Of a stretch of 64,000 bases of DNA, positions 2,435-20,393 are shown piece after piece. The stretch covers positions 1 to 64,000 of the IMG/VR virus record IMGVR_UViG_3300045988_001753. One strand, written 5' to 3'. The notes beneath the pieces are model-generated. The model did no database searches. It was not told the DNA's origin and saw only the letters and a program-made list of their open reading frames with translations. A program made the position numbers and the translations under genes. The DNA comes from a virus. Position 1 is the first letter of the stretch. Every line of letters begins with the position of its first letter.

Positions 2435-3958
2435 ATGAAAGAAGCAATTTTATTGACTGATGGCTATAAGTTAGACCATAGAAGGCAATACCCTGAAGGT
2501 ACAGAGTATGTCTACTCTAATTGGACTCCAAGAAGCTGTCATTATTACCCTGAGGCTGAGGAAGGTGCTGTTGTATTTGGAATACAATACTTTATCAAAG
2601 AGTATTTGATGAAGCAATTCCAAGAGGACTTCTTCAATAAGCCTAAGGATGTGGCAGTTGCAGAGTTTAAGAGAAGGGTAGATACATTTTTGGGACCTAA
2701 CAATGTGGGCACAAAACACATTGAGGAGTTGCATGACCTTGGCTATCTTCCCATTAGAATCAAAGCATTGCCTGAGGGTACATTGTGTCCTATCAGAGTA
2801 CCTGCATTGACATTCATCAACACTCATCCTGATTTCTTTTGGCTTACCAACTACTTTGAGACTCTCATCTCAACTACCTTGTGGTTGCCTATGACAAGTG
2901 CAATTACTGCAAGGTTGTATAAGAAGGAGTTGATAAGACATGCAAGGAAGACAGGATTTAAGGATGTAGACCTTAATTTCCTCATACATGACTTCTCTAT
3001 GAGAGGCATGGCTGGAGTAGAAGCTGCCATTATGTCTGGTATGGGTCATATGACTTCATTCTGTGGTAGTGAGACTATTCCTGCTATTGCTGGTCTTGAA
3101 GAGTATTACAATGCAGATGCTGAGAAGGAGCTTATTGCAGCTACAATTCCAGCAACAGAGCATAGTGTCATGTGTGCAGGTGGTAAGGAAGATGAATTGG
3201 AGACATTTAGGAGACTCATTACAGAGGTATATCCTACTGGATTTGTATCTATTGTCTCTGATACTTGGGATTTTTGGAAGGTAATGACAGAGTATCTGCC
3301 TAAGTTAAAGGATGAAATCCTTGCAAGGGATGGTAGGTTAGTCATAAGACCTGATAGTGGAGACCCAGTACATATCATTGCAGGCTATAAGCATGAGGAC
3401 TTTGAGACTTGGCAGGAGCAAACAGAAGTGCAAAACAGGATGAGTAGTACTGCTGAATGGGTAGGTGCATATCAAGTTCTGTGGGACATCTTTGGTGGTA
3501 CTGTCAATGAGAAAGGCTACAAGGTACTTAATCCCAAAGTAGGTATCATCTATGGTGATTCTATTACTCTTGAAAGGCAGAAAGAAATCTACAAGAGGCT
3601 TGAAGAAAGAGGCTTTGCAGCTACTAATCTTGTGCTTGGTGTAGGCTCATATACCTATCAGTATAAGAGTAGGGATTCTCTTGGCTTTGCTATGAAGGCT
3701 ACTTGGTGTCAGGTTAATGGGGAAGGAAGGGAAATCTTCAAAGACCCTAAGACTGATGATGGCACTAAGAAATCATTGAAAGGTCTTATTTGTGTTCAAG
3801 GTGATGGTGATAAGTATGTAGCTGAGGACCAAGTAACCAAGGAACAGGAAGAGAAGGGGTATTTGCAGACTGTCTTTGAAGATGGCAAGTTAGTTAAGGA
3901 GTGGACTCTAAGTCAGATTAGAGCCAATGTTGATAACTCAATTGTATTGGAGGATTAG
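2435..3958 (+). CDS. nadV: nicotinamide phosphoribosyltransferase family protein (NAMPT/NadV-like; possibly a NARP1 Namat-type enzyme)
   Basis: 507 aa with family-typical LLTDGYKLDHRRQY, IRPDSGDP and IIYGDSI. An A10 leader lies upstream (2423..2432). Confidence 0.85.
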   Translation: MKEAILLTDGYKLDHRRQYPEGTEYVYSNWTPRSCHYYPEAEEGAVVFGIQYFIKEYLMKQFQEDFFNKPKDVAVAEFKRRVDTFLGPNNVGTKHIEELHDLGYLPIRIKALPEGTLCPIRVPALTFINTHPDFFWLTNYFETLISTTLWLPMTSAITARLYKKELIRHARKTGFKDVDLNFLIHDFSMRGMAGVEAAIMSGMGHMTSFCGSETIPAIAGLEEYYNADAEKELIAATIPATEHSVMCAGGKEDELETFRRLITEVYPTGFVSIVSDTWDFWKVMTEYLPKLKDEILARDGRLVIRPDSGDPVHIIAGYKHEDFETWQEQTEVQNRMSSTAEWVGAYQVLWDIFGGTVNEKGYKVLNPKVGIIYGDSITLERQKEIYKRLEERGFAATNLVLGVGSYTYQYKSRDSLGFAMKATWCQVNGEGREIFKDPKTDDGTKKSLKGLICVQGDGDKYVAEDQVTKEQEEKGYLQTVFEDGKLVKEWTLSQIRANVDNSIVLED

Positions 3959-12185: not shown

Positions 12186-12701
12186 ATGGAAAGTTGGATA
12201 GAAGTAATTGATGGATACAAGGTATCAAATCTTGGGGAAGTTTATAGCACAAGGACTAATAAGGTACTAAAGAAACATACTGATAGGTATGGATACTTAT
12301 ATGTTGGAGTGTATATAAATGGGAGGTTGAAGTTTAAGAAGGTACATAGGTTAGTTGCCAAAGCCTTTCTTAGTAATTATTCTGATGACTTACAAGTAAA
12401 TCATAAGAATGAGGATAAGAAAGACAATAGAGTGGAGAATCTTGAAATGTGCAATAACAGATATAATTGTAATTATGGCAGCAGAAAGAATGTTTTGTCC
12501 AAAGCAGTTATACAAGAAACCTTAGATGGAAACTTTGTCAAAGAATGGGCTTCCACAAGAGAAATTGAGCAAACACTTGGATTCTCAAATACTTCTATCT
12601 CTGCTTGTTGTAGAGGATTTGCCAAGGATTATCATTCTGGTAAAGTATATCCTGTGCATCAAGCATTTGGTTATAAGTGGAAATATAAAAATAATGAATA
12701 A
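12186..12701 (+). CDS. free-standing HNH homing endonuclease (NUMOD4 + HNH_3 type)
   Basis: NUMOD4-like WIEVIDGYKVSNLGEVYS. HNH_3-like HRLVAKAFLSNYSDDLQVNHKNEDKKDNRVENLE. C-terminal IENR-like WASTREIEQTLGFSNTSISACC. Confidence 0.85.
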   Translation: MESWIEVIDGYKVSNLGEVYSTRTNKVLKKHTDRYGYLYVGVYINGRLKFKKVHRLVAKAFLSNYSDDLQVNHKNEDKKDNRVENLEMCNNRYNCNYGSRKNVLSKAVIQETLDGNFVKEWASTREIEQTLGFSNTSISACCRGFAKDYHSGKVYPVHQAFGYKWKYKNNE

Positions 12702-13647
12702 CATGAATAAGAAAAAAGTTGGATATGCTTTTATGGCATTCAGTAAAGGAACAGAGAGTAAAGAAGGCAATGCAGTAAAGAGATATACAGGTGTAGCTCC
12801 TGTATTTGTTTTGGCTGTAAATCCTAACAAGGCAGAGTTAGAGAAACTCTATAATACCCAGCTTGAAAATGACCCTGAGTATCTGGGTGAAGTTGAGGTA
12901 GGTGAGGACAAGCACAAGGTACAGAATGTCAGACTTGATTTCATTGTTAAGACTGATGCTGAAAAGTGTGGTGGTATTGAGTTTACCACTAAGGTAGCTT
13001 TCTTCATTAGAAAGGAATACAGATACAATAGAGACCAGACTAAGGTACAGGTAATTGATAAGTATGGTAGAACTGCTTGGGTTACTGTAGAGCAGGCTAA
13101 GGCACATGAGATTCCTGTATATAAGAATGGCCCTGCCAACATTGATAAGGACTACAGACCTGCTTATCATGGTGAGGAAGAGCTTACTAACTTCATTAAG
13201 GCATACCTCAACATTCCTAATGTAATGAAGTATGTCAATAATACTTGGGTTATGGTAGACAAACCTGAGGATTGTGAAGCAAGACTTGAGAATATTGCTG
13301 AGTACTTCAAGGGCAATTTCAAGGAGCTGAGAGATGTTATTGCATTGCAGCCTAATAACAAGGTTAAGGTATTGTTTGGTGTAAGAACCACTGATGATAA
13401 TAAGCAGTATCAGGCTGTTTATAATCAGATGTTCTTGAAGAACAACATTACTGACTACAGTAAGTTGGATGCAGACTTGCAGGAAAGAAAGGCTGCTGGT
13501 GCATATCCTACTACTGAGTTTACTGTGGGTGACTTGAAGGAGTATGATGTAGAATCTACAGACCTCAGTAACTCTGGTGCAGCAGGTGATATGCCTTTCC
13601 CTGCTGGTGATGCTGGTGGTGGTACACCTTGGGATTTTGGTAAGTAA
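12694..13647 (+). CDS. hypothetical protein; ssDNA-binding protein candidate
   Basis: The likely start (MNNMNKKK) overlaps the HNH stop; the track extension from 12526 lies inside the HNH gene. The SSB idea rests on the position between replication genes, strong codon bias and a Gly-rich C-terminal tail (GDMPFPAGDAGGGTPWDFGK). Function is not established. Confidence 0.3.
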   Translation: MNNMNKKKVGYAFMAFSKGTESKEGNAVKRYTGVAPVFVLAVNPNKAELEKLYNTQLENDPEYLGEVEVGEDKHKVQNVRLDFIVKTDAEKCGGIEFTTKVAFFIRKEYRYNRDQTKVQVIDKYGRTAWVTVEQAKAHEIPVYKNGPANIDKDYRPAYHGEEELTNFIKAYLNIPNVMKYVNNTWVMVDKPEDCEARLENIAEYFKGNFKELRDVIALQPNNKVKVLFGVRTTDDNKQYQAVYNQMFLKNNITDYSKLDADLQERKAAGAYPTTEFTVGDLKEYDVESTDLSNSGAAGDMPFPAGDAGGGTPWDFGK

Positions 13648-13672: not shown

Positions 13673-14713
13673 ATGGCAATCAGCAAAGGTAAATCTTCTG
13701 TGAGCCTTGATGATATTCTAAGTAAAGTGACAGAAGCAGATATTCTGTCATATTACTTAGGAGTCACAGAGGTTCCTTGTATTATAAATAGTCCTCTTAG
13801 ACAGGACAGGAGACCTTCTTTTGGTCTTTATTCTACTGATGGTAGAAGAATATTTTACACAGATTTATCCACGAGGGATAGAGGAGGTCTATTTGACCTG
13901 CTTGGTCATATGTGGAACTGTGGTTATAAGGAAGTTCTAACAAGGATTAATGAAGACATTTCAAAGTTCTGTGGTGGTGCCAGTGTTCATTCATATACTC
14001 CCTGTGCTGTAAGAAGTACAAATAGCTATAACAAAGATACAGACTTGCAGTGCAAAGTCAGAGATTGGAGAAGTTATGATATTGAATATTGGGCATCCTA
14101 TGGTATAACTTTAGAATGGCTCAAGTATGCAGAGGTTTATCCCATATCTCATAAGATTGTCATAAAAGATGGTCATAGATATGTATTTGGAGCTGATAAA
14201 TATGCCTATGCTTATGTAGAACACAAAGAAGGCAAAGTTACCCTAAAAATATATCAGCCTTTCAATAAAGCTGGTTATAAGTGGAGTAACAAGCATGACA
14301 ATTCTGTAGTGAGCCTATGGACTAAAGTACCTGAGTATGGGGAGCAGATTTGCATTTGCTCTTCATTGAAAGATGCTCTATGTCTATGGGCTAATACAGG
14401 TATTCCATCTCTTGCCATTCAAGGTGAGGGGTATAGGATGAGTGATACTGCAATTAGTGAACTGAAAAGAAGATATAAACAGGTCTTCATTTGCTTGGAT
14501 AATGATGAGCCAGGACTAAAAGATGCTCAGAAGTTAGCTGAGGAAACAGGCTTTACTAATGTAGTGTTACCACCCTTTAATGAAGGGAAAGATATTTCAG
14601 ACTTGTATAAGGCTAAGGGCAAAGATGAGTTCCTTAGAATAATCAAGCCTTTATTCAACTCTTCAAGACAAGAGGACAATGATTGGAATGATTTGCCCTT
14701 TTGTATAGATTAA
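13673..14713 (+). CDS. DnaG-type TOPRIM DNA primase
   Basis: TOPRIM DxD motif VFICLDNDEPG and a degenerate zinc-finger-like N-terminus (PCIINSPLRQDRRPSFGLY). A10 leader at 13660..13669. Confidence 0.7.
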   Translation: MAISKGKSSVSLDDILSKVTEADILSYYLGVTEVPCIINSPLRQDRRPSFGLYSTDGRRIFYTDLSTRDRGGLFDLLGHMWNCGYKEVLTRINEDISKFCGGASVHSYTPCAVRSTNSYNKDTDLQCKVRDWRSYDIEYWASYGITLEWLKYAEVYPISHKIVIKDGHRYVFGADKYAYAYVEHKEGKVTLKIYQPFNKAGYKWSNKHDNSVVSLWTKVPEYGEQICICSSLKDALCLWANTGIPSLAIQGEGYRMSDTAISELKRRYKQVFICLDNDEPGLKDAQKLAEETGFTNVVLPPFNEGKDISDLYKAKGKDEFLRIIKPLFNSSRQEDNDWNDLPFCID

Positions 14714-14751: not shown

Positions 14752-15507
14752 ATGGAAGCAAGAAAAATTACAGTCGTACAGACTAAGAATCAGAAGAAGA
14801 GTGTTATTATGTCAGCAGCCACGACCCTTGCTGAGTTGAAAAGTGACCTGAGAGCCAATGGTATTGACTATGATGGTATGACCTTCTTTGAAGGTACATC
14901 AAAGGTTGAATTGAAGAATGATGCTTCAGTTCTGCCACATGATGTTCCTTACAAGGGCACTATCACAAATGAGTTGGTTTTCATGCTTACTAACACCAAC
15001 AAGAAAATTAGAAGTGGTGCTGTTGCAATGAGTAGAGCTGAGGCATACAGTGCTATCAAATCTATGGGTTTACAGGATGCTTGTGTGAAGAAGTTTGGCA
15101 AGAACTTCACTATGTGTAAGACTGCTGACCTTATTGCATTGATACAGAGCAATGGTGCTTCAAAGCCTGCTCCTGCTGCTCCTAAAGCTGAGGCTAAGGC
15201 TGAGACTAAGAAGGAGGAAAAGGTAGAAGCACCTGTAAACACTCCTGAAGTAAGTGCTCCTGTAGCACCTGCAAGTAATGGTGGTGAGTGTGTTGATACT
15301 GTAGCAAGAGCTGCTATCAGCAAGTTGGTGGAAATTCTTGAGGACAATGGCACAATTGAAGATTATGAGAAAGAGAAAGTGCTTGATATTCTTGGGGGTG
15401 AAGTAGCTGTAGCTGCTGCACCATCTGAGGAGTATAAGCCTAAGTCAGCTTCTCCTTACTCTGATGATGAGATTGATGATATGTTCGCAGGAATGGGTGT
15501 CAATTAA
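14752..15507 (+). CDS. hypothetical protein; N-terminal beta-grasp/ubiquitin-like candidate, Ala/Pro/Lys linker, acidic C-terminus
   Basis: Residues 1-89 show an alternating strand/helix pattern reminiscent of ubiquitin and end in KKIRSG. A low-complexity stretch KPAPAAPKAEAKAETKKEEK follows. A8 leader upstream and a strong terminator downstream. Confidence 0.5.
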   Translation: MEARKITVVQTKNQKKSVIMSAATTLAELKSDLRANGIDYDGMTFFEGTSKVELKNDASVLPHDVPYKGTITNELVFMLTNTNKKIRSGAVAMSRAEAYSAIKSMGLQDACVKKFGKNFTMCKTADLIALIQSNGASKPAPAAPKAEAKAETKKEEKVEAPVNTPEVSAPVAPASNGGECVDTVARAAISKLVEILEDNGTIEDYEKEKVLDILGGEVAVAAAPSEEYKPKSASPYSDDEIDDMFAGMGVN

Positions 15508-15522
15508 TAAGGGTAAGTAACA

Positions 15523-15566
15523 GTAGGTAAGGAGGTTAGAAATGTCCCCTTACCTACTTTTTTTTT
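15523..15566 (+). terminator. rho-independent terminator
   Basis: 10-bp stem GTAGGTAAGG (15523..15532) / CCTTACCTAC (15548..15557), followed by T9 (15558..15566). Confidence 0.75.
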
Positions 15567-15574
15567 ACAGTAAT

Positions 15575-16876
15575 ATGAGTGGAGAAACAATTAAATTAAT
15601 TGAGGAGAAGATAGAAGAACTATATAACTCCTTGATGGACAGACCACTCCGAGTATTAAGCATATTCAATGACTTTTTTGGAGAGGATAAAGTTGATATG
15701 CAAGGATATTGGAGTTTGGACAAGTTCAAATCTTGGATGAATATAGAGCCTTTATCTACTTATATTCCTGATGGTAATATTGTAAGCATGAACAGGAATG
15801 ACTGGAGCATGTATAAAACATGGGCTATTACTGATTTACCTGGAGACCAGGTAGAAAAGGTTGTAAATGTGCTTACAAATACTACAGTAAAGGAAAGAAT
15901 TGGTAATGCTAAGTTCAATGGCATATTCATTCTTGTACATTTTCCTCATGTAAGAGTAACTAATGAGCATGACAGATTTGTGGATATTAACCATCTGTGG
16001 GCTAAGGTAAAAGTAATGTATAATGGCACATTGAATGGTGGATTTACACTTAACAGGTCAGAATATACTATGCTTCATATTAGCAGTGGATATATGCACA
16101 GTCATATCAGTGGCATTCCTACAAATGACTTTACCAGTTTTCGGAATCCTTGCACAGGCAGTGGTCCCATCAATGGTACTATTAGTGCCCTCAATAGGGA
16201 TTATGATGAGGATATGTGGAATATGTTTTGTCTTGAGCTAAGTAAATATGTAACTGTAGAATCCATTGCTGGCAGACCTTATAAATATTTGGAAAAGTTA
16301 GGTACTGGTAACATGGAGATGGGTGTAGACAGGTTTGTTACATATCTATCACCAGACTACTATGGAGATGCTCTTAGTCCTGATAAGTTGAAGGAGTTTG
16401 TAAGAGGCTTTATCAATTCAAAGAAACTTAAATTCAATTATGTAAATGGCTCTTATTCTATTGGTATGTCACTTATTGAGTTTATTGTACTTATTAGCAA
16501 TGAATTTATTAAGTGGTATAATGACCAGTTTAATAAAGAGGAGCTAACTGCCGAGTTTGCAGAATTGAAGAGGAAAGGTATCTTGAAAGAATGTATCATA
16601 GATAATGGGAAGATTTACTATGATAAAGGTAGGAACAATGTAAATAACTATGCCCAACATATAGGCAAGAAGGTTTGCATGTTCAAGGGAAGAGAGGTTA
16701 CTGTTGATATTACAGATATTGCTGAGGTAAGGAATGAGAATAAGAGTATAATTCTTAATACTCATACTGCACTATACATATTAGCAACAATACTTAAAGT
16801 GTTAAATTATAGATATGGAAGAAGTAAAGCAACCCACGAAAGTAATCAGCTTGGTACAGAAGTCAGGTACTTATAA
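15575..16876 (+). CDS. hypothetical protein (433 aa), first gene of the JAB/E1 operon
   Basis: The track start at 15542 lies inside the terminator hairpin, so the ATG at 15575 (MSGETIKL) is preferred. No secure motif. Confidence 0.5.
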   Translation: MSGETIKLIEEKIEELYNSLMDRPLRVLSIFNDFFGEDKVDMQGYWSLDKFKSWMNIEPLSTYIPDGNIVSMNRNDWSMYKTWAITDLPGDQVEKVVNVLTNTTVKERIGNAKFNGIFILVHFPHVRVTNEHDRFVDINHLWAKVKVMYNGTLNGGFTLNRSEYTMLHISSGYMHSHISGIPTNDFTSFRNPCTGSGPINGTISALNRDYDEDMWNMFCLELSKYVTVESIAGRPYKYLEKLGTGNMEMGVDRFVTYLSPDYYGDALSPDKLKEFVRGFINSKKLKFNYVNGSYSIGMSLIEFIVLISNEFIKWYNDQFNKEELTAEFAELKRKGILKECIIDNGKIYYDKGRNNVNNYAQHIGKKVCMFKGREVTVDITDIAEVRNENKSIILNTHTALYILATILKVLNYRYGRSKATHESNQLGTEVRYL

Positions 16877-18032
16877 TTATAAGCTGATTATCCCAGCAGA
16901 AGTGGAGAGAAAGATAAGATTTGCCTGCCAAAAGGTGTGGAGTACTGAATGGTCAGGTACACTATTCTTTACACATGAAGGTTCATTTGAAAATAATGAC
17001 CTTGTAATAAGATGTGTGGATATTTACATTATGGATATTGGTACTCAAGCCTATACAGAGTTTGATATGAATCCTGATGTGATAGCCTATATGTGTGAGA
17101 ATCCTGAGCTACTTGATTGCCAAATGGGTCTTATACATTCCCATAACAATATGAGTACTTTCTTTAGTGGGACAGATACTGCTACTCTAAAGGAGGAAGG
17201 TAGGGATAGAAATAACTTTGTATCTCTCATTGTGAATAATGCAGGTACTTATACTGCTGCAATTACAAGGAGGGTTAAATCAAAGCAGGTCAAAGAATCT
17301 GTGTCTTATGAGTTCTTTGGTGATGGTGAAAAGCATGATACTAAGGAATATGTAAGTAGTGCAGATGAAATTGAATGGTTCTACCTTAAAATAGAGAAGG
17401 AAGGTGAGAATTATTCCTTTCCAGACATGGCAGCAAGACTTGAGGAAATCAAGCAAGCTAAAGCAGAAAGGGCAGAGAAAGCCAAGAAAGCTCAGACACC
17501 TGTATATCAAGATGGCTATAAACCTGTTATTGCTAATTCCTATGGTACAAAGGCAGGTCCAGCAAATCTTGTCAAGAAGGAAGCTGATAAGCCTAAGGTA
17601 GTTCAGCCAACTCTCTTTGATAATGTAGATGACTTGCCATTTGAAGAGGGATATGATATACCTTATGGTCAGGTATCATTTGATAAGGTTACTTTGAAAT
17701 CTCTTGTACTTCAATTGATTACAGGTAGTATTATCATTTCTAATGATAGCAAGATTGACATTACTAAATGGGCTAAGTCAATGCCTACCCTGTATGAAAA
17801 GAGGTTTGGTAAAGGCAAAGTTGGCATGGATAATTTCAAGATATGGGCAGAGACCTATACAGAGTATCTGACATGGTATATAACAGATGAGAAATTAGAA
17901 GAGCTTGGCTTTGATGAAACAGAAATTTGTGCTATTTGTGCCCATGATATGATAGAGGAGCTTACAAAACTCCCTGAAAATGATTATATCAAAGGGTATA
18001 TTGATGCACTTCAAAAGTATTTAGTATTATGA
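16815..18032 (+). CDS. JAB/MPN+ (JAMM) metallopeptidase-domain protein with long C-terminal extension
   Basis: Upstream Glu context STEWSGTLFF. IHSHNNMSTFFSGTD matches H-x-H-x7-S-x2-D (17136..17177). Confidence 0.75.
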   Translation: MEEVKQPTKVISLVQKSGTYNYKLIIPAEVERKIRFACQKVWSTEWSGTLFFTHEGSFENNDLVIRCVDIYIMDIGTQAYTEFDMNPDVIAYMCENPELLDCQMGLIHSHNNMSTFFSGTDTATLKEEGRDRNNFVSLIVNNAGTYTAAITRRVKSKQVKESVSYEFFGDGEKHDTKEYVSSADEIEWFYLKIEKEGENYSFPDMAARLEEIKQAKAERAEKAKKAQTPVYQDGYKPVIANSYGTKAGPANLVKKEADKPKVVQPTLFDNVDDLPFEEGYDIPYGQVSFDKVTLKSLVLQLITGSIIISNDSKIDITKWAKSMPTLYEKRFGKGKVGMDNFKIWAETYTEYLTWYITDEKLEELGFDETEICAICAHDMIEELTKLPENDYIKGYIDALQKYLVL

Positions 18033-18949
18033 CAAATAGTGAAATAGAAAATAGAGTAGCAGAATCTGAGAGAGCTTTAGAAGAAGCTATTGAAGAGTTC
18101 AACTCAGTAGAAGAGTATGAAGAGGCTCTTCAGAATCTTGATAATGATTCACCTTTGACAGAGGAAGAACAGGCTATTCTTGACCAAGCTGTAGAAGATG
18201 CACATCAAGAGATACCTACAAACTCTGCAACTTTGCTTGTGGATGAAGCTACAAGTAGGTTTAGTTCTGCCATTTGGTATGAGAACATTCAGAAGAAGAC
18301 TGTCATTTTGGCAGGTGTAGGTGGTATTGGTAGTTATGTAGGCTTCTTATTGGCAAGAATGAAGCCAGCTTCCATGTTCATTTATGATGATGACATAGTG
18401 GAAACTGTCAATATGTCAGGTCAGTTATATGGTCAATCTGATTTAGGTAGACCTAAGGTATCTGCACTGGCTGAGATGATTAGAAACTATGCTGGCTATA
18501 GCAGTGTCTTTGCAATAAGTGAAAGATTCACTGATGAATCTGAGGCATCAGACATCATGATTTGTGGCTTTGATAATATGGCAGCAAGAAGACTCTTCTT
18601 TAATAAATGGGTAAATCATGTTCAATCCAAACCAGAAGAGGAGAGAAAGAATTGCCTGTTTATTGATGGTAGATTAGCAGCAGAAGAGTTTCAGGTATTG
18701 TGCATCAAGGGAGATGATGAGTACAACATCAGTAAGTACAATAATGAGTTCCTATTCTCTGATGCAGAAGCTGATGAAACTATCTGCTCCTATAAACAAA
18801 CTACCTTCTGTGCAAATATGATTGCATCTTATATGGTTAATTTGTTTGTAAACTTCTGTGCTAATCAATGTGAGCCTCTCATTGATAGAGACCTGCCATT
18901 CCTTACCACATATAATGCAGAAACAATGTATCTTAAAACTGAAGTATAA
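18029..18949 (+). CDS. ThiF/MoeB/E1-like adenylyltransferase
   Basis: Rossmann loop VILAGVGGIGSYVGFLLARM (18314..18334) followed by IYDDDIVETVNMSGQLY. Acidic 85-aa N-terminal extension. ATGA overlap with the JAB gene. Confidence 0.7.
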   Translation: MTNSEIENRVAESERALEEAIEEFNSVEEYEEALQNLDNDSPLTEEEQAILDQAVEDAHQEIPTNSATLLVDEATSRFSSAIWYENIQKKTVILAGVGGIGSYVGFLLARMKPASMFIYDDDIVETVNMSGQLYGQSDLGRPKVSALAEMIRNYAGYSSVFAISERFTDESEASDIMICGFDNMAARRLFFNKWVNHVQSKPEEERKNCLFIDGRLAAEEFQVLCIKGDDEYNISKYNNEFLFSDAEADETICSYKQTTFCANMIASYMVNLFVNFCANQCEPLIDRDLPFLTTYNAETMYLKTEV

Positions 18950-19719
18950 TGGAATTTAACCCAAGATTTGCATATAATGTAATGGATGTTTTCAATAGCA
19001 GTGAGTCTGGTAATCCAGACCAGCTTGAAATGAATCTGTCTCTTGATAGTAACAATGTATTTAGAAGAAGCCTTGTCATTGAAGTAAACAATGATGAGGT
19101 AGAGATACCTGTGATTGCAAGAGAACACTTTGAAAAGCTGGTTTCAGACAATATGGCTTATCCCGCAATTATGGGAATCAAGAGGATAATATTGCCATTA
19201 TATGATAATGCACCAAGCCAAGAAAGAAGAACCTTTGATAGTATCATAGCTCAATTATTTACTAATGTAGGATATGGTAAAAGATTGCAGAAGATAACTA
19301 CCAATAAGGGCGAAGTGTATTATGGTGGTAAAGGTATCATCTTTGATGAGAGCTACACTCCATTACTATTATGTACATTAACTGCAAGAAGTGTACATAC
19401 TGAGGATAATGGTAATGCTATGGTCTATTACAGACCTGTATGCCATGTCAGTCCCAAAGTATTCTTAGAGTCTGATAAGTTGATTAATAAAGGCATCATC
19501 AAGAAATTGATTCCTTATTATACAAGTAGGGATATAAATTTCCCAAGAAGCAATTACAGCTTCAGTAGTAATCCAGAGGACAGGAAAGTAAAGGTCATAG
19601 TAGATAATTTCAATAAGTTCTTTGTAGAACCTATTAAACCTACTCCATCTGCCTGCTCTAATGATGCACTGAATGAATGCCTTATTGACAATATTGATGA
19701 CATAATGATGTTGATATGA
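18949..19719 (+). CDS. hypothetical protein (256 aa), JAB/E1 operon member
   Basis: TAATG overlap with the E1-like stop and ATGA overlap with the UDG start. No motif recognised. Confidence 0.5.
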   Translation: MEFNPRFAYNVMDVFNSSESGNPDQLEMNLSLDSNNVFRRSLVIEVNNDEVEIPVIAREHFEKLVSDNMAYPAIMGIKRIILPLYDNAPSQERRTFDSIIAQLFTNVGYGKRLQKITTNKGEVYYGGKGIIFDESYTPLLLCTLTARSVHTEDNGNAMVYYRPVCHVSPKVFLESDKLINKGIIKKLIPYYTSRDINFPRSNYSFSSNPEDRKVKVIVDNFNKFFVEPIKPTPSACSNDALNECLIDNIDDIMMLI

Positions 19720-20393
19720 CATTAGATGAATACTTTGGAGATTGGATGAAGGTAATTGATAGGACAGAGCTTAATAATGTAATGGCTAAGGTTGGGCAAG
19801 AATACAGGAGGAAACCATTGTGTCCTGCCCAATCTGATGTATTCAGAGCATTTGAGCTTTGTCCTCTCAATGACTTGAAAGTAGTTATGTTAGGTCAAGA
19901 CCCCTATCCACAAAAGGGAGTGGCAACTGGAGTATTATTCGGGAATAGAAAGGAAGTTGATGAGGATAACTTATCTCCTTCATTAAATGTTGTTAAAGAA
20001 GCAGCAATTAATTTTGAAGTTCCACATTATTGTATTACCTTTGACCAGACTTTAGAGAGTTGGGCTAAACAGGGAATACTGATGATAAACTCTGCCCTCA
20101 CTGTAGAAATGAATAGGATAGGTTCCCATGTGATGTTATGGAGACCTTTCATATCTAAACTCTTAAAGAACCTGTCTGACTATGATACAGGGATAGTATA
20201 TGTCCTGTTTGGGAAGCAGGCTCAGACTTTTAAGCCTTATATAAATGAAAAGTTCAATCATGTATTTGAAGTGGAGCATCCTGCATACTTTGCAAGGAAT
20301 GGCAGGAAGATGCCACATGAACTGTTTGTTAATATAAGCAATACAGTAAAGGGAATTTATGGAGTACCAATAGAGTGGTACAAAGAGTATTAA
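19716..20393 (+). CDS. ung: uracil-DNA glycosylase, family 1
   Basis: VVMLGQDPYPQKGVATGVLFG (GQDPY motif), QGILMINSALTVE and a C-terminal EHPAYF region. Typical length of 225 aa. Confidence 0.85.
   Translation: MTLDEYFGDWMKVIDRTELNNVMAKVGQEYRRKPLCPAQSDVFRAFELCPLNDLKVVMLGQDPYPQKGVATGVLFGNRKEVDEDNLSPSLNVVKEAAINFEVPHYCITFDQTLESWAKQGILMINSALTVEMNRIGSHVMLWRPFISKLLKNLSDYDTGIVYVLFGKQAQTFKPYINEKFNHVFEVEHPAYFARNGRKMPHELFVNISNTVKGIYGVPIEWYKEY

Follow-up and report, generated by a model that had tools for sequence, protein, structure and literature searches.

What does a lytic phage do with the parts of a ubiquitin-like protein (Ubl) system placed among its replication genes? Prokaryotic cassettes of Ubl, E1 and JAB genes are understood as anti-phage immunity (type II CBASS, Bil and Bub systems) or as sulfur-carrier metabolism. 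We analysed positions 1 to 64,000 of the IMG/VR virus record IMGVR_UViG_3300045988_001753 (the whole 64,000-nucleotide stretch is called the window below), in which a JAB peptidase gene and an E1-like gene lie side by side. The window is a Steigviridae-type crAss-like phage, syntenic with PhiCrAss001, and the crAss-like identity claimed in a preliminary description of this DNA was correct. The core of the locus, shared by hundreds of related phages, is a four-gene, phage-specific cassette located downstream of the primase gene and encoding a Ubl (the N-terminal domain of protein A), protein B, the JAB protein and the E1-like enzyme. The logic of the host systems is here built into the replication module of a large lytic-phage lineage, which reverses the usual host-versus-phage assignment. 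The reading that we favour, with a probability of about 0.5, is a phage-run, Bil- or SAMP-like pathway of Ubl processing and conjugation. Protein tagging run by the phage had already been proposed in the preliminary description, and it is the best reading of the present data because Ubl, JAB and E1 occur together in a fixed order and the glycine at the processing site is conserved.

The same cassette was found in DAC15, Dulem virus 41 and Flavobacterium phage FpV4, as well as in all 80 close IMG/VR relatives fetched, except for a few loci cut at the contig end. A divergent set of 80 loci came from an IMG/VR search whose query was an E1 alignment with the FpV4 protein as its first sequence; outside FpV4-like contigs, the E1s of this set were 36–51% identical to the FpV4 E1. 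Components were counted in these loci by profile searches of open reading frames (ORFs). The E1 was detected in 80/80 loci, the JAB domain in 79/80, protein B in 71/80, and the Ubl domain in 60/80. The order was always Ubl, B, JAB, E1 in the approximately 160 close and divergent loci. Three other parts, namely the C-terminal part of protein A (22/80, with unrelated tails or none elsewhere), the C-terminal region of the JAB protein (20/80), and the product of the gene that follows E1, protein E (20/80, a Steigviridae/FpV4-like subset only), were found just in the clades behind their profiles, and their drop may be partly a detection limit. The protein B family comprised 2546 clusters at 50% identity (E<=1e-3) and was restricted to phages. 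Just three loci were labelled bacterial, one of them on a 94-kb contig, and they look like phage contigs binned into metagenome-assembled genomes.

Protein A begins with a beta-grasp domain. In the AlphaFold2 (AF2) model, based on an alignment of 26 sequences, residues 1–81 formed a strand-strand-helix-strand-strand beta-grasp with a predicted local distance difference test score (pLDDT) of 77–87, and residues 87–90 (R-S-G-A) had a pLDDT of <50. The top Foldseek matches of this domain in PDB were all beta-grasp proteins, namely DIX, ubiquitin, SUMO1, ISG15, NEDD8, and UBX (probability 1.0, E of about 2e-3, template modelling (TM) score of 0.45–0.72 normalised to the target). ThiS and MoaD were not among the top 50 PDB matches listed. 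The beta-grasp likeness, previously a guess for this 251-amino-acid (aa) protein, was thus confirmed by AF2 and Foldseek for residues ~1–81.

The tail that closes the Ubl domain, K-x-K/R-S-G, is nearly invariant and lies in a flexible linker. K84, K85, I86, S88, and G89 were invariant in the protein A alignment, and directly past G89 the homologues varied in both sequence and length. Divergent phages kept the tail as K-[VI]-K-S-G apart from a few deviations, K-I-A-S-G for example, also where the E1 was only 36–51% identical to the FpV4 query. In five divergent loci, the Ubl was free-standing, 75–83 aa long, and stopped 1–5 residues past the Gly (ends SG-NKN, SG-NEKKH, SG-K, SG-TSI, and SG-F); other loci carried unrelated extensions past the Gly. 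The JAB gene was also kept in the cassettes with free-standing Ubls. In one relative (L022, positions 2551–3480), the Ubl gene was split two residues past S-G, so that a 91-aa ORF ended K-I-K-S-G-K-F-stop. The ORF inserted at the split (...NIIANYNSISEASRFTGISCGAI) resembled the DNA-binding region of a homing endonuclease, and the C-terminal cargo of protein A formed a separate 163-aa ORF beyond the insert. The gene was split in another relative (L047) as well, and the Ubl ORF there was likewise 91 aa long.

The JAMM motif of the JAB protein, described earlier as complete, was exact: E45 (in EWSG) and H108-S-H110-x7-S118-x2-D121. H108 was kept in 74 of 74 distinct homologues and H110, S118, and D121 in every non-truncated homologue; E45 was invariant in a 14-sequence alignment, and W46-S47-G48 were kept in 70–72 of the 74. 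The match to Pfam Prok-JAB (PF14464) reached 21 bits (E=3.2e-4), under the 25-bit cut-off, and the match to JAMM1 in PDB had E=0.28. The JAB assignment is based on the motif together with this weak profile match, and the protein is a predicted Ubl-processing and deconjugating enzyme. A conserved Gly, a short or variable sequence after it and an obligatory JAB are the signature of precursor processing. There are two precedents for this arrangement. In Type II BilA, up to nine residues come after a conserved Gly, and cutting behind this Gly by BilC was shown experimentally (PMC10557695). TAPI of phage lambda has a conserved C-terminal Gly and a linker-fused domain, and the adjacent JAB (TAPK) was predicted to cleave there (PMC1779556).

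The ThiF/E1 Rossmann assignment made for the next gene product holds, with a Pfam ThiF (PF00899) score of 63.9 bits vs. a 28.1 cut-off (1.6e-17, residues 84–227). Essentially invariant in 73 distinct E1s were the G96-x-G98-G99-x-G101 loop, D120/D122, N128, Q132, K143, D182-N183, and R187, and likewise R77-F78, D213-G-R215, C253, and T258. The loop, D120, N128, Q132, K143, D182, R187, and C253 were conserved in 71–73 of the 73, all shortfalls being gaps; C253 was present in 73/73 and R77 in 69/73. From its position in the sequence, C253 would be equivalent to C184 of ThiF and C187 of MoeB. CxxC zinc motifs were absent, as read from the sequence of the E1. The N-terminal extension of the enzyme (18029–18253 in the window) is acidic and differs greatly in length between homologues; complete E1s range from ~225 to ~390 aa. 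PhiCrAss001-like phages have an extra segment of ~100 residues in this extension, which aligns between two of the loci (L060 and L082).

Similarity searches did not attach this enzyme to any one E1 family. PADLOC matches were CBASS E1-E2 (3.5e-12) and BilD (4e-5). The best single-sequence PDB match was Cap2 (1.5e-5), and PDB profile matches included UBA5 (8e-12), MccB, TcdA, PaaA, ThiF, MoeB, Cap2, and BubCD, in the Rossmann half only. The top NCBIfam scores were those of ThiS-adenylating ThiF models (67.6 bits vs. 159 for PRK08644), MoeB reached 35 vs. 449, and the equivalog cut-offs of ThiF, MoeB, and TcdA were all missed widely. Judged by profile scores rather than by a tree, the scores against UBA5, MccB, TcdA, ThiF, MoeB, and Cap2 were similar and weak, which sets the phage E1 apart as a viral clade of its own. 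Since the matches cover only the Rossmann half, the enzyme can at present be placed neither with cofactor- and tRNA-modifying enzymes nor with conjugating E1s. The GenBank labels of PhiCrAss001 ('thiamine biosynthesis protein ThiF'), FpV4 and others, together with the Pfam ThiF match, would make it an auxiliary gene of thiamine or molybdopterin biosynthesis. We regard this as highly improbable: ThiS, ThiG, ThiH, MoaD, or MoaE partners were not found in the cassette, the scores stayed below the NCBIfam ThiF and MoeB cut-offs, and the E1 is always linked to JAB, an SG-tailed Ubl and B within phage replication modules.

Protein B is the conserved partner without a recognised fold. Its AF2 model (47-sequence alignment, 37–94% identity) had a pLDDT of 86.4 and a predicted TM-score of 0.70 and showed three parts: a helical region at the N-terminus, an alpha/beta domain in the centre and a mixed domain at the C-terminus. 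The central domain consists of strands 118–129, 135–147, 153–161, and 173–175, a long loop, and helices 198–208 and 212–225. By our reading of the model, residues 118–225 (four strands, the Cys loop, and two helices) follow only loosely a UBC-like order. Foldseek gave no fold match in PDB (best E=0.59; PDB copy with releases to April 2026), no E2 was present in the top 50 PDB matches listed, and BFVD returned only uncharacterised crAss-like proteins. No UBC/E2 was found with Pfam, also when 38 divergent members were included, or with PDB sequence profiles searched with three alignments of rising diversity. The hhalign probability was 0.1% against a three-sequence alignment of eukaryotic E2s and 0.6% against PRTRC_B. 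The proposal that this 433-aa protein is an E2 was therefore abandoned, every one of these searches being negative.

The signature of the protein B family is Y173-x-H175-S176-H177 ... C193-x-G195 ... E229-S230-x-x-G233-x-P235. Y173, S176, H177, C193, G195, E229, S230, and P235 were invariant in homologues only 15–21% identical to the window protein, and N130, H175, R161, and G233 were nearly so. The invariant C193-x-G195 lies 16 residues past Y-x-H-S-H in the window protein, the loop being variable in length; this is a resemblance to the HPN-Cys arrangement, not a match. The single invariant Cys caps the N-terminus of a helix. Because this Cys is accompanied by invariant His, Ser, and Glu nearby in sequence, protein B is probably a thiol enzyme. 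All searches for an E2 having been negative, we treat it as a candidate conjugating enzyme whose fold is unassigned rather than as an E2. Two other identities were considered and rejected. A Zn site formed by H175, H177, C193, and C219 is not supported, C219, E131, and E221 not being kept in divergent members. A second, degenerate JAB read from H-S-H had an hhalign probability of 0.5%, and the JAMM S and D positions were not conserved.

An invariant Cys in protein B would also suit a sulfur carrier. In such a scheme, the JAB-trimmed Ubl (as in CysO/Mec+ and QbsE/QbsD) would be adenylated by the E1 and become a thiocarboxylate, and B would use it to thiolate a nucleic-acid or small-molecule substrate within the replication module. 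Ubl, E1 and JAB without an E2 are the classical sulfur-carrier composition (Iyer et al. 2006, PMC1779556), ThiS-adenylating ThiF models gave the top NCBIfam scores of the E1 (67.6 bits), and the cassette lies among genes of nucleotide and DNA metabolism. However, the ThiF/MoeB equivalog cut-offs were widely missed (67.6 vs. 159), and Foldseek ranked ubiquitin, SUMO and NEDD8 for the Ubl rather than ThiS/MoaD. The cassette yielded no domain of the rhodanese, cysteine desulfurase or PP-loop type, and the E1 is devoid of CxxC. The phage tail, moreover, is Ser-Gly, as opposed to the Gly-Gly of known carriers. Taken together, these data make the sulfur-carrier explanation fairly unlikely.

For the conjugation pathway, we infer cleavage, adenylation, a thioester relay via B, conjugation and the nature of the targets as follows. 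Protein A would be a Ubl precursor that the JAB protein cuts after S88-G89, freeing a Ubl of ~89 residues and a clade-specific cargo. The E1-like enzyme would then bind the basic K-K-I-R-S-G tail and adenylate G89 with ATP. The activated Ubl would pass to Cys253 of the E1 and/or Cys193 of B as a thioester, B acting in the role of an E2 without the UBC fold. Finally, the Ubl would be put on lysines of phage or host proteins in the replication phase, and the same JAB could reverse the modification. The K/R-S-G tail would leave a diagnostic Ser-Gly remnant on lysines after trypsin. We suggest only tentatively that B represents a new-fold, phage-specific Ubl-conjugating enzyme (a non-UBC analogue of E2/E3) with which Crassvirales would tag host or replisome proteins during infection. 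If B is indeed the conjugating enzyme, the cassette would represent the first ubiquitination-like pathway that a virus runs in bacteria, and one found in phages that are among the most abundant in the human gut. If the cassette conjugates at all, phages use Ubl tagging offensively or for their own replication, with a partner enzyme whose fold would be new to Ubl chemistry. The lineage takes in Flavobacterium phage FpV4 and the cultured models PhiCrAss001 and DAC15; the cassette occurs in cultured and abundant gut phages, which makes the proposal directly testable.

Several observations weigh against the conjugation pathway. In canonical E1s, the arginine of the NxxRQ motif contacts the ATP phosphates. 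The window E1 has N128-M-S-G131-Q132, in which G131 occupies the alignment position of the Arg in Cap2 and UBA5; in the 73 homologues, position 131 was G in 60, N in 9, S in 2, V in 1, and never R. Adenylation may accordingly be altered; the clade-specific invariant R215 may compensate for the missing Arg. Protein B is not detectable as an E2, and its role is assigned from position and the invariant Cys only. The Ubl tail is Ser-Gly instead of Gly-Gly. The PADLOC models of BilA, BilB, and BilC gave no match (E<=1) to A, B, and JAB. Conserved synteny could in part result from the shared ancestry of replication modules in crAss-like phages and not from function.

The Arg-less E1 is open to a second explanation, in which processing is all that the cassette does: the Ubl serves as a cleavable chaperone or timer for the cargo, JAB releases the cargo, and the E1-like protein is a binding or regulatory subunit. 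Eukaryotic ubiquitin-ribosomal protein fusions and lambda TAPI/TAPK are parallels. The partners past SG vary, the E1 is without its canonical phosphate-binding Arg, and in lambda tail assembly a phage Ubl and JAB were proposed to act in processing with no conjugation step (PMC1779556). Free-standing Ubls with 1–5 extra residues and no cargo nevertheless keep the JAB, E1 and B genes, and D182, K143, N128, Q132, R77 (69/73), and Cys253 of the E1 are invariant or nearly so, which argues for catalysis. We therefore consider processing alone unlikely.

The E1 variant (Arg to Gly with a new invariant D-G-R) is a natural experiment on E1 catalysis. The E1 of a jumbo Xanthomonas phage is also Arg-less and keeps D-G-R and Cys253, and these common features define a viral sub-clade of E1s. 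Searches of IMG/VR by exact peptide patterns yielded no jumbo-phage E1 relatives. In Xanthomonas phage PhiXhv-12 (L086, 2754–7506), the E1 belongs to a three-gene set located between DNA ligase and topoisomerase genes, together with a 140-aa protein ending K-A-S-G-G and an 892-aa Cys-rich protein with I-H-P-H...S-L-C-L-G. No JAB was detected in this locus, and the 892-aa protein had no Pfam domain and no similarity to B or JAB in searches with hidden Markov models (HMMs). The set may represent another kind of Ubl cassette in phages, with a Ubl that needs no trimming.

Among known systems, BilABCD, which consists of a Ubl, an E2, a JAB and an E1, is the best architectural match to the phage cassette. 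Like the phage cassette, Bil (especially Type II, formerly CEHH/6C) combines a Ubl, a Cys/His-bearing partner, a JAB deubiquitinase and an E1, and the order bilA-bilB-bilC-bilD, which we take from the gene names, presumably mirrors the phage order. The Ubl in both is nearer to ubiquitin than to ThiS/MoaD and bears a short, non-conserved extension past the Gly. Like protein B, BilB is encoded between the Ubl and JAB genes, and it was unrecognisable from sequence until its structure was seen, being known only as 'CEHH' after its conserved residues (PMC10557695). Unlike Bil, the phage cassette is carried by a lytic phage instead of its host and lies in the replication module beside the primase gene. 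No E2 fold was matched by the phage B, a 433-aa protein of three domains, and the phage E1 consists of just one minimal adenylation domain, in which Gly replaces the NxxRQ Arg and which matched BilD only at 4e-5.

Type II CBASS likewise pairs an E1 adenylation domain (Cap2) with a JAB (Cap3). Unlike Cap2, the 306-aa phage E1 has no fused E2, and the matches cover only the Rossmann part of Cap2 models. The phage has a dedicated beta-grasp Ubl, whereas CBASS uses the CD-NTase as its 'Ubl'; no CD-NTase or other nucleotidyltransferase was found among the five cassette proteins scanned (A, B, JAB, E1 and E). The PADLOC Cap3 models did not match the phage JAB. These likenesses bear on counter-defence as an explanation: the JAB would strip host Ubl conjugates (Cap2 products or Bil modifications of virion proteins), and/or the E1 and Ubl would act as decoys that block host pathways. 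The E1 is weakly similar to CBASS Cap2 and BilD, and host Bil and type II CBASS depend on conjugation that is reversible by JAB (PMC10557695). On the other hand, a simple deconjugase needs neither a dedicated Ubl with its own conserved tail nor the obligatory partner B, BilC failed like Cap3 to match the JAB, and the cassette occupies a conserved replication module instead of a variable anti-defence island. That the phage has a Ubl and an E1 of its own makes counter-defence less likely as the sole function, and we judge it decidedly unlikely.

The second match is PRTRC (ParB-related, ThiF-related cassette) of plasmids and integrative and conjugative elements, for which we compared two fetched examples (L090 and L091). 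The Rhodanobacter locus encodes ParB, a hypothetical protein, PRTRC_C, a 444-aa protein, PRTRC_B, PRTRC_A, and ThiF, and a few genes on SSB, UvrD, and RdgC. The Alteromonas locus encodes a 72-aa Ubl ending K-S-K-G, a 421-aa protein, a 252-aa E2-like protein, and ThiF. Like the phage cassette, PRTRC is borne by mobile elements beside genes of DNA replication, partition and repair, and the order is Ubl (PRTRC_C), a ~420–444-aa protein, the E2-like PRTRC_B, JAB (PRTRC_A), and ThiF. The Ubl tails K-S-K-G (Alteromonas) and T-K-G followed by 13 aa (Rhodanobacter) resemble the phage K-x-K-S-G. PRTRC ThiF was among the plasmid matches that covered most of the phage E1. The scores were nevertheless far from the NCBIfam cut-offs, with 34.3 (1.5e-8) vs. 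144.75 for PRTRC_ThiF and 12.8 vs. 101.8 for PRTRC_A, and the phage has no ParB partner and no separate E2 of the PRTRC_B type. Homology of the phage proteins A, B, and E to PRTRC_C, the 444-aa protein and PRTRC_B was rejected, HMM and hhalign comparisons giving none. The unannotated ~420–444-aa PRTRC protein has the size and position of the phage B and no detectable sequence similarity to it.

Two further kinds of system were compared with the phage cassette. Archaeal SAMP/UbaA/HvJAMM1 and Thermus TtuB/TtuC need no E2 for protein conjugation and deconjugation, a Ubl, an E1 of one domain and a JAMM peptidase being enough; thus, the absence of a recognisable E2 does not exclude conjugation. The SAMP and TtuB Ubls have Gly-Gly ends and also serve as sulfur carriers in tRNA thiolation and molybdenum cofactor synthesis. 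Unlike the phage cassette, these systems are cellular and have no equivalent of protein B. TAPI/TAPK of lambda and T1 resemble the cassette in being a phage-encoded Ubl with a C-terminal Gly, a linker-fused domain and an adjacent JAB; unlike it, they have no E1, belong to the tail morphogenesis module, and have a JAB fused to NlpC/P60, whereas here there is an E1 with a conserved Cys and the module is that of replication.

Existing GenBank labels of the cassette genes are ThiF, metalloprotease, and 'E1 enzyme family protein'. A literature search, with subscription journals outside its reach, found no paper linking crAss-like phages to Ubl, E1, or JAB systems, and the main text of the PhiCrAss001 description and of the Yutin 2021 survey does not mention the cassette genes. 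The true beta-grasp Ubl, the conserved processing Gly and the four-gene core are new here, no earlier description other than the GenBank labels having been found.

The coordinates of the cassette and its neighbours are given in Table 1. All ORFs of the cassette listed in the preliminary description are present at the positions given there, and the DNA bears out the junctions claimed: the 62-nucleotide (nt) overlap at 16815/16876, ATGA at 18029, TAATG at 18947–18951, and ATGA at 19716. The cassette region was 80% identical at the nucleotide level to bajarodcaudo virus 1 across 98% of the region and, at the protein level, syntenic with gp79–gp74 of Bacteroides phage PhiCrAss001.

Table 1. Features of the cassette region in the window, with the orthologues in PhiCrAss001 and their GenBank labels.
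Feature	Position	Strand	Length	PhiCrAss001	Remarks
DnaG/Toprim primase	13673..14713	+			Pfam Toprim, PHROG DNA primase; conserved upstream neighbour
Protein A gene	14752–15507	+	251 aa	gp79 (hypothetical)	
Ubl beta-grasp domain, protein A residues 1–89	14752..15018	+			ends K84-K85-I86-R87-S88-G89; predicted modifier
Predicted JAB cleavage site, S88-G89 / A90	15013..15021	+			flexible linker
Clade-specific C-terminal 'cargo' of protein A	15019..15507	+			secondary structure from AF2
Protein B gene	15575–16876	+	433 aa	gp78 (hypothetical)	three-domain, phage-specific; predicted thiol enzyme, candidate conjugating component; alternative ATG at 15542
JAB/JAMM metallopeptidase gene	16815–18032	+	405 aa	gp77 ('metalloprotease domain')	domain at ~residues 1–165, plus clade-specific C-terminal helical region
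E1-like adenylation enzyme gene	18029–18949	+	306 aa	gp76 ('thiamine biosynthesis protein ThiF')	variable acidic N-terminal extension 1–75, ThiF-type domain 76–306
Protein E gene	18949–19719	+	256 aa	gp75 (hypothetical)	translationally coupled on both sides
Uracil-DNA glycosylase (UDG) gene	19716–20393	+	225 aa	gp74 (UDG)	Pfam UDG 2.4e-13; coupled to protein E via ATGA

Homologues of protein B favoured the start at 15575 over the ATG at 15542. The overlap of the B and JAB genes was conserved, with 62 nt in the window, in a relative (L001) and in PhiCrAss001, and 80–180 nt in Dulem virus 41, FpV4, and divergent loci. It spans the disordered C-terminal tail of B (pLDDT <50, residues 415–431) together with the JAB N-terminus. 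Relative to B, the JAB gene is read in the +1 frame, and no B-JAB fusion proteins were seen; a slippery site was not searched for.

The cargo of protein A is composed, in the AF2 model, of a helical region (95–135), a disordered linker (137–180), two helices and an acidic Y-S-D-D-E-I-D-D-M-F motif, the C-terminal helix being acidic. It had no Pfam or PDB match. The helical region 95–135 may be SAP/HeH-like; no profile confirmed this identity. Protein E had no match in Pfam, PHROG or PDB and no invariant Cys, Ser, or His. The 256-aa protein, likewise put forward earlier as an E2 candidate, is clade-specific and has no invariant Cys, and an identity as E2 or Ubl was rejected for lack of matches and of catalytic invariants and for its position outside the core. 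Protein E is an accessory, not a core component. Judging from co-occurrence that is confounded by phylogeny, it may act as an adaptor, either to the cargo of A or to the C-terminal part of the JAB protein.

The primase gene was located upstream of the cassette in 71/80 divergent loci. UDG was within ~6 kb of the cassette, on either side, in 41/80; in FpV4, it lies between the primase and Ubl genes. Downstream of the cassette in the window are UDG, a PD-(D/E)XK-like nuclease and a class III ribonucleotide reductase. Seven close relatives (L025, L034, L042, L043, L046, L057, and L059) had only a 103-aa C-terminal fragment of UDG, displaced by ~0.9–1.5 kb and located about 2–3 kb downstream of the E1 gene. 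This suggests a mobile insertion (an intron or homing endonuclease) in the UDG gene.

No tRNA or tmRNA genes were found in the whole window (1–64000) with ARAGORN. The replication module also contains a free-standing HNH homing endonuclease gene (12186–12701, + strand; Pfam HNH_3 8.7e-9, NUMOD4 1.7e-7), the 3' end of which overlaps the long version of the next ORF (12526–13647). Both GC skew and AT skew flip sign near 46 kb of the window, and at this point the rightward replication/early module gives way to genes transcribed leftward.

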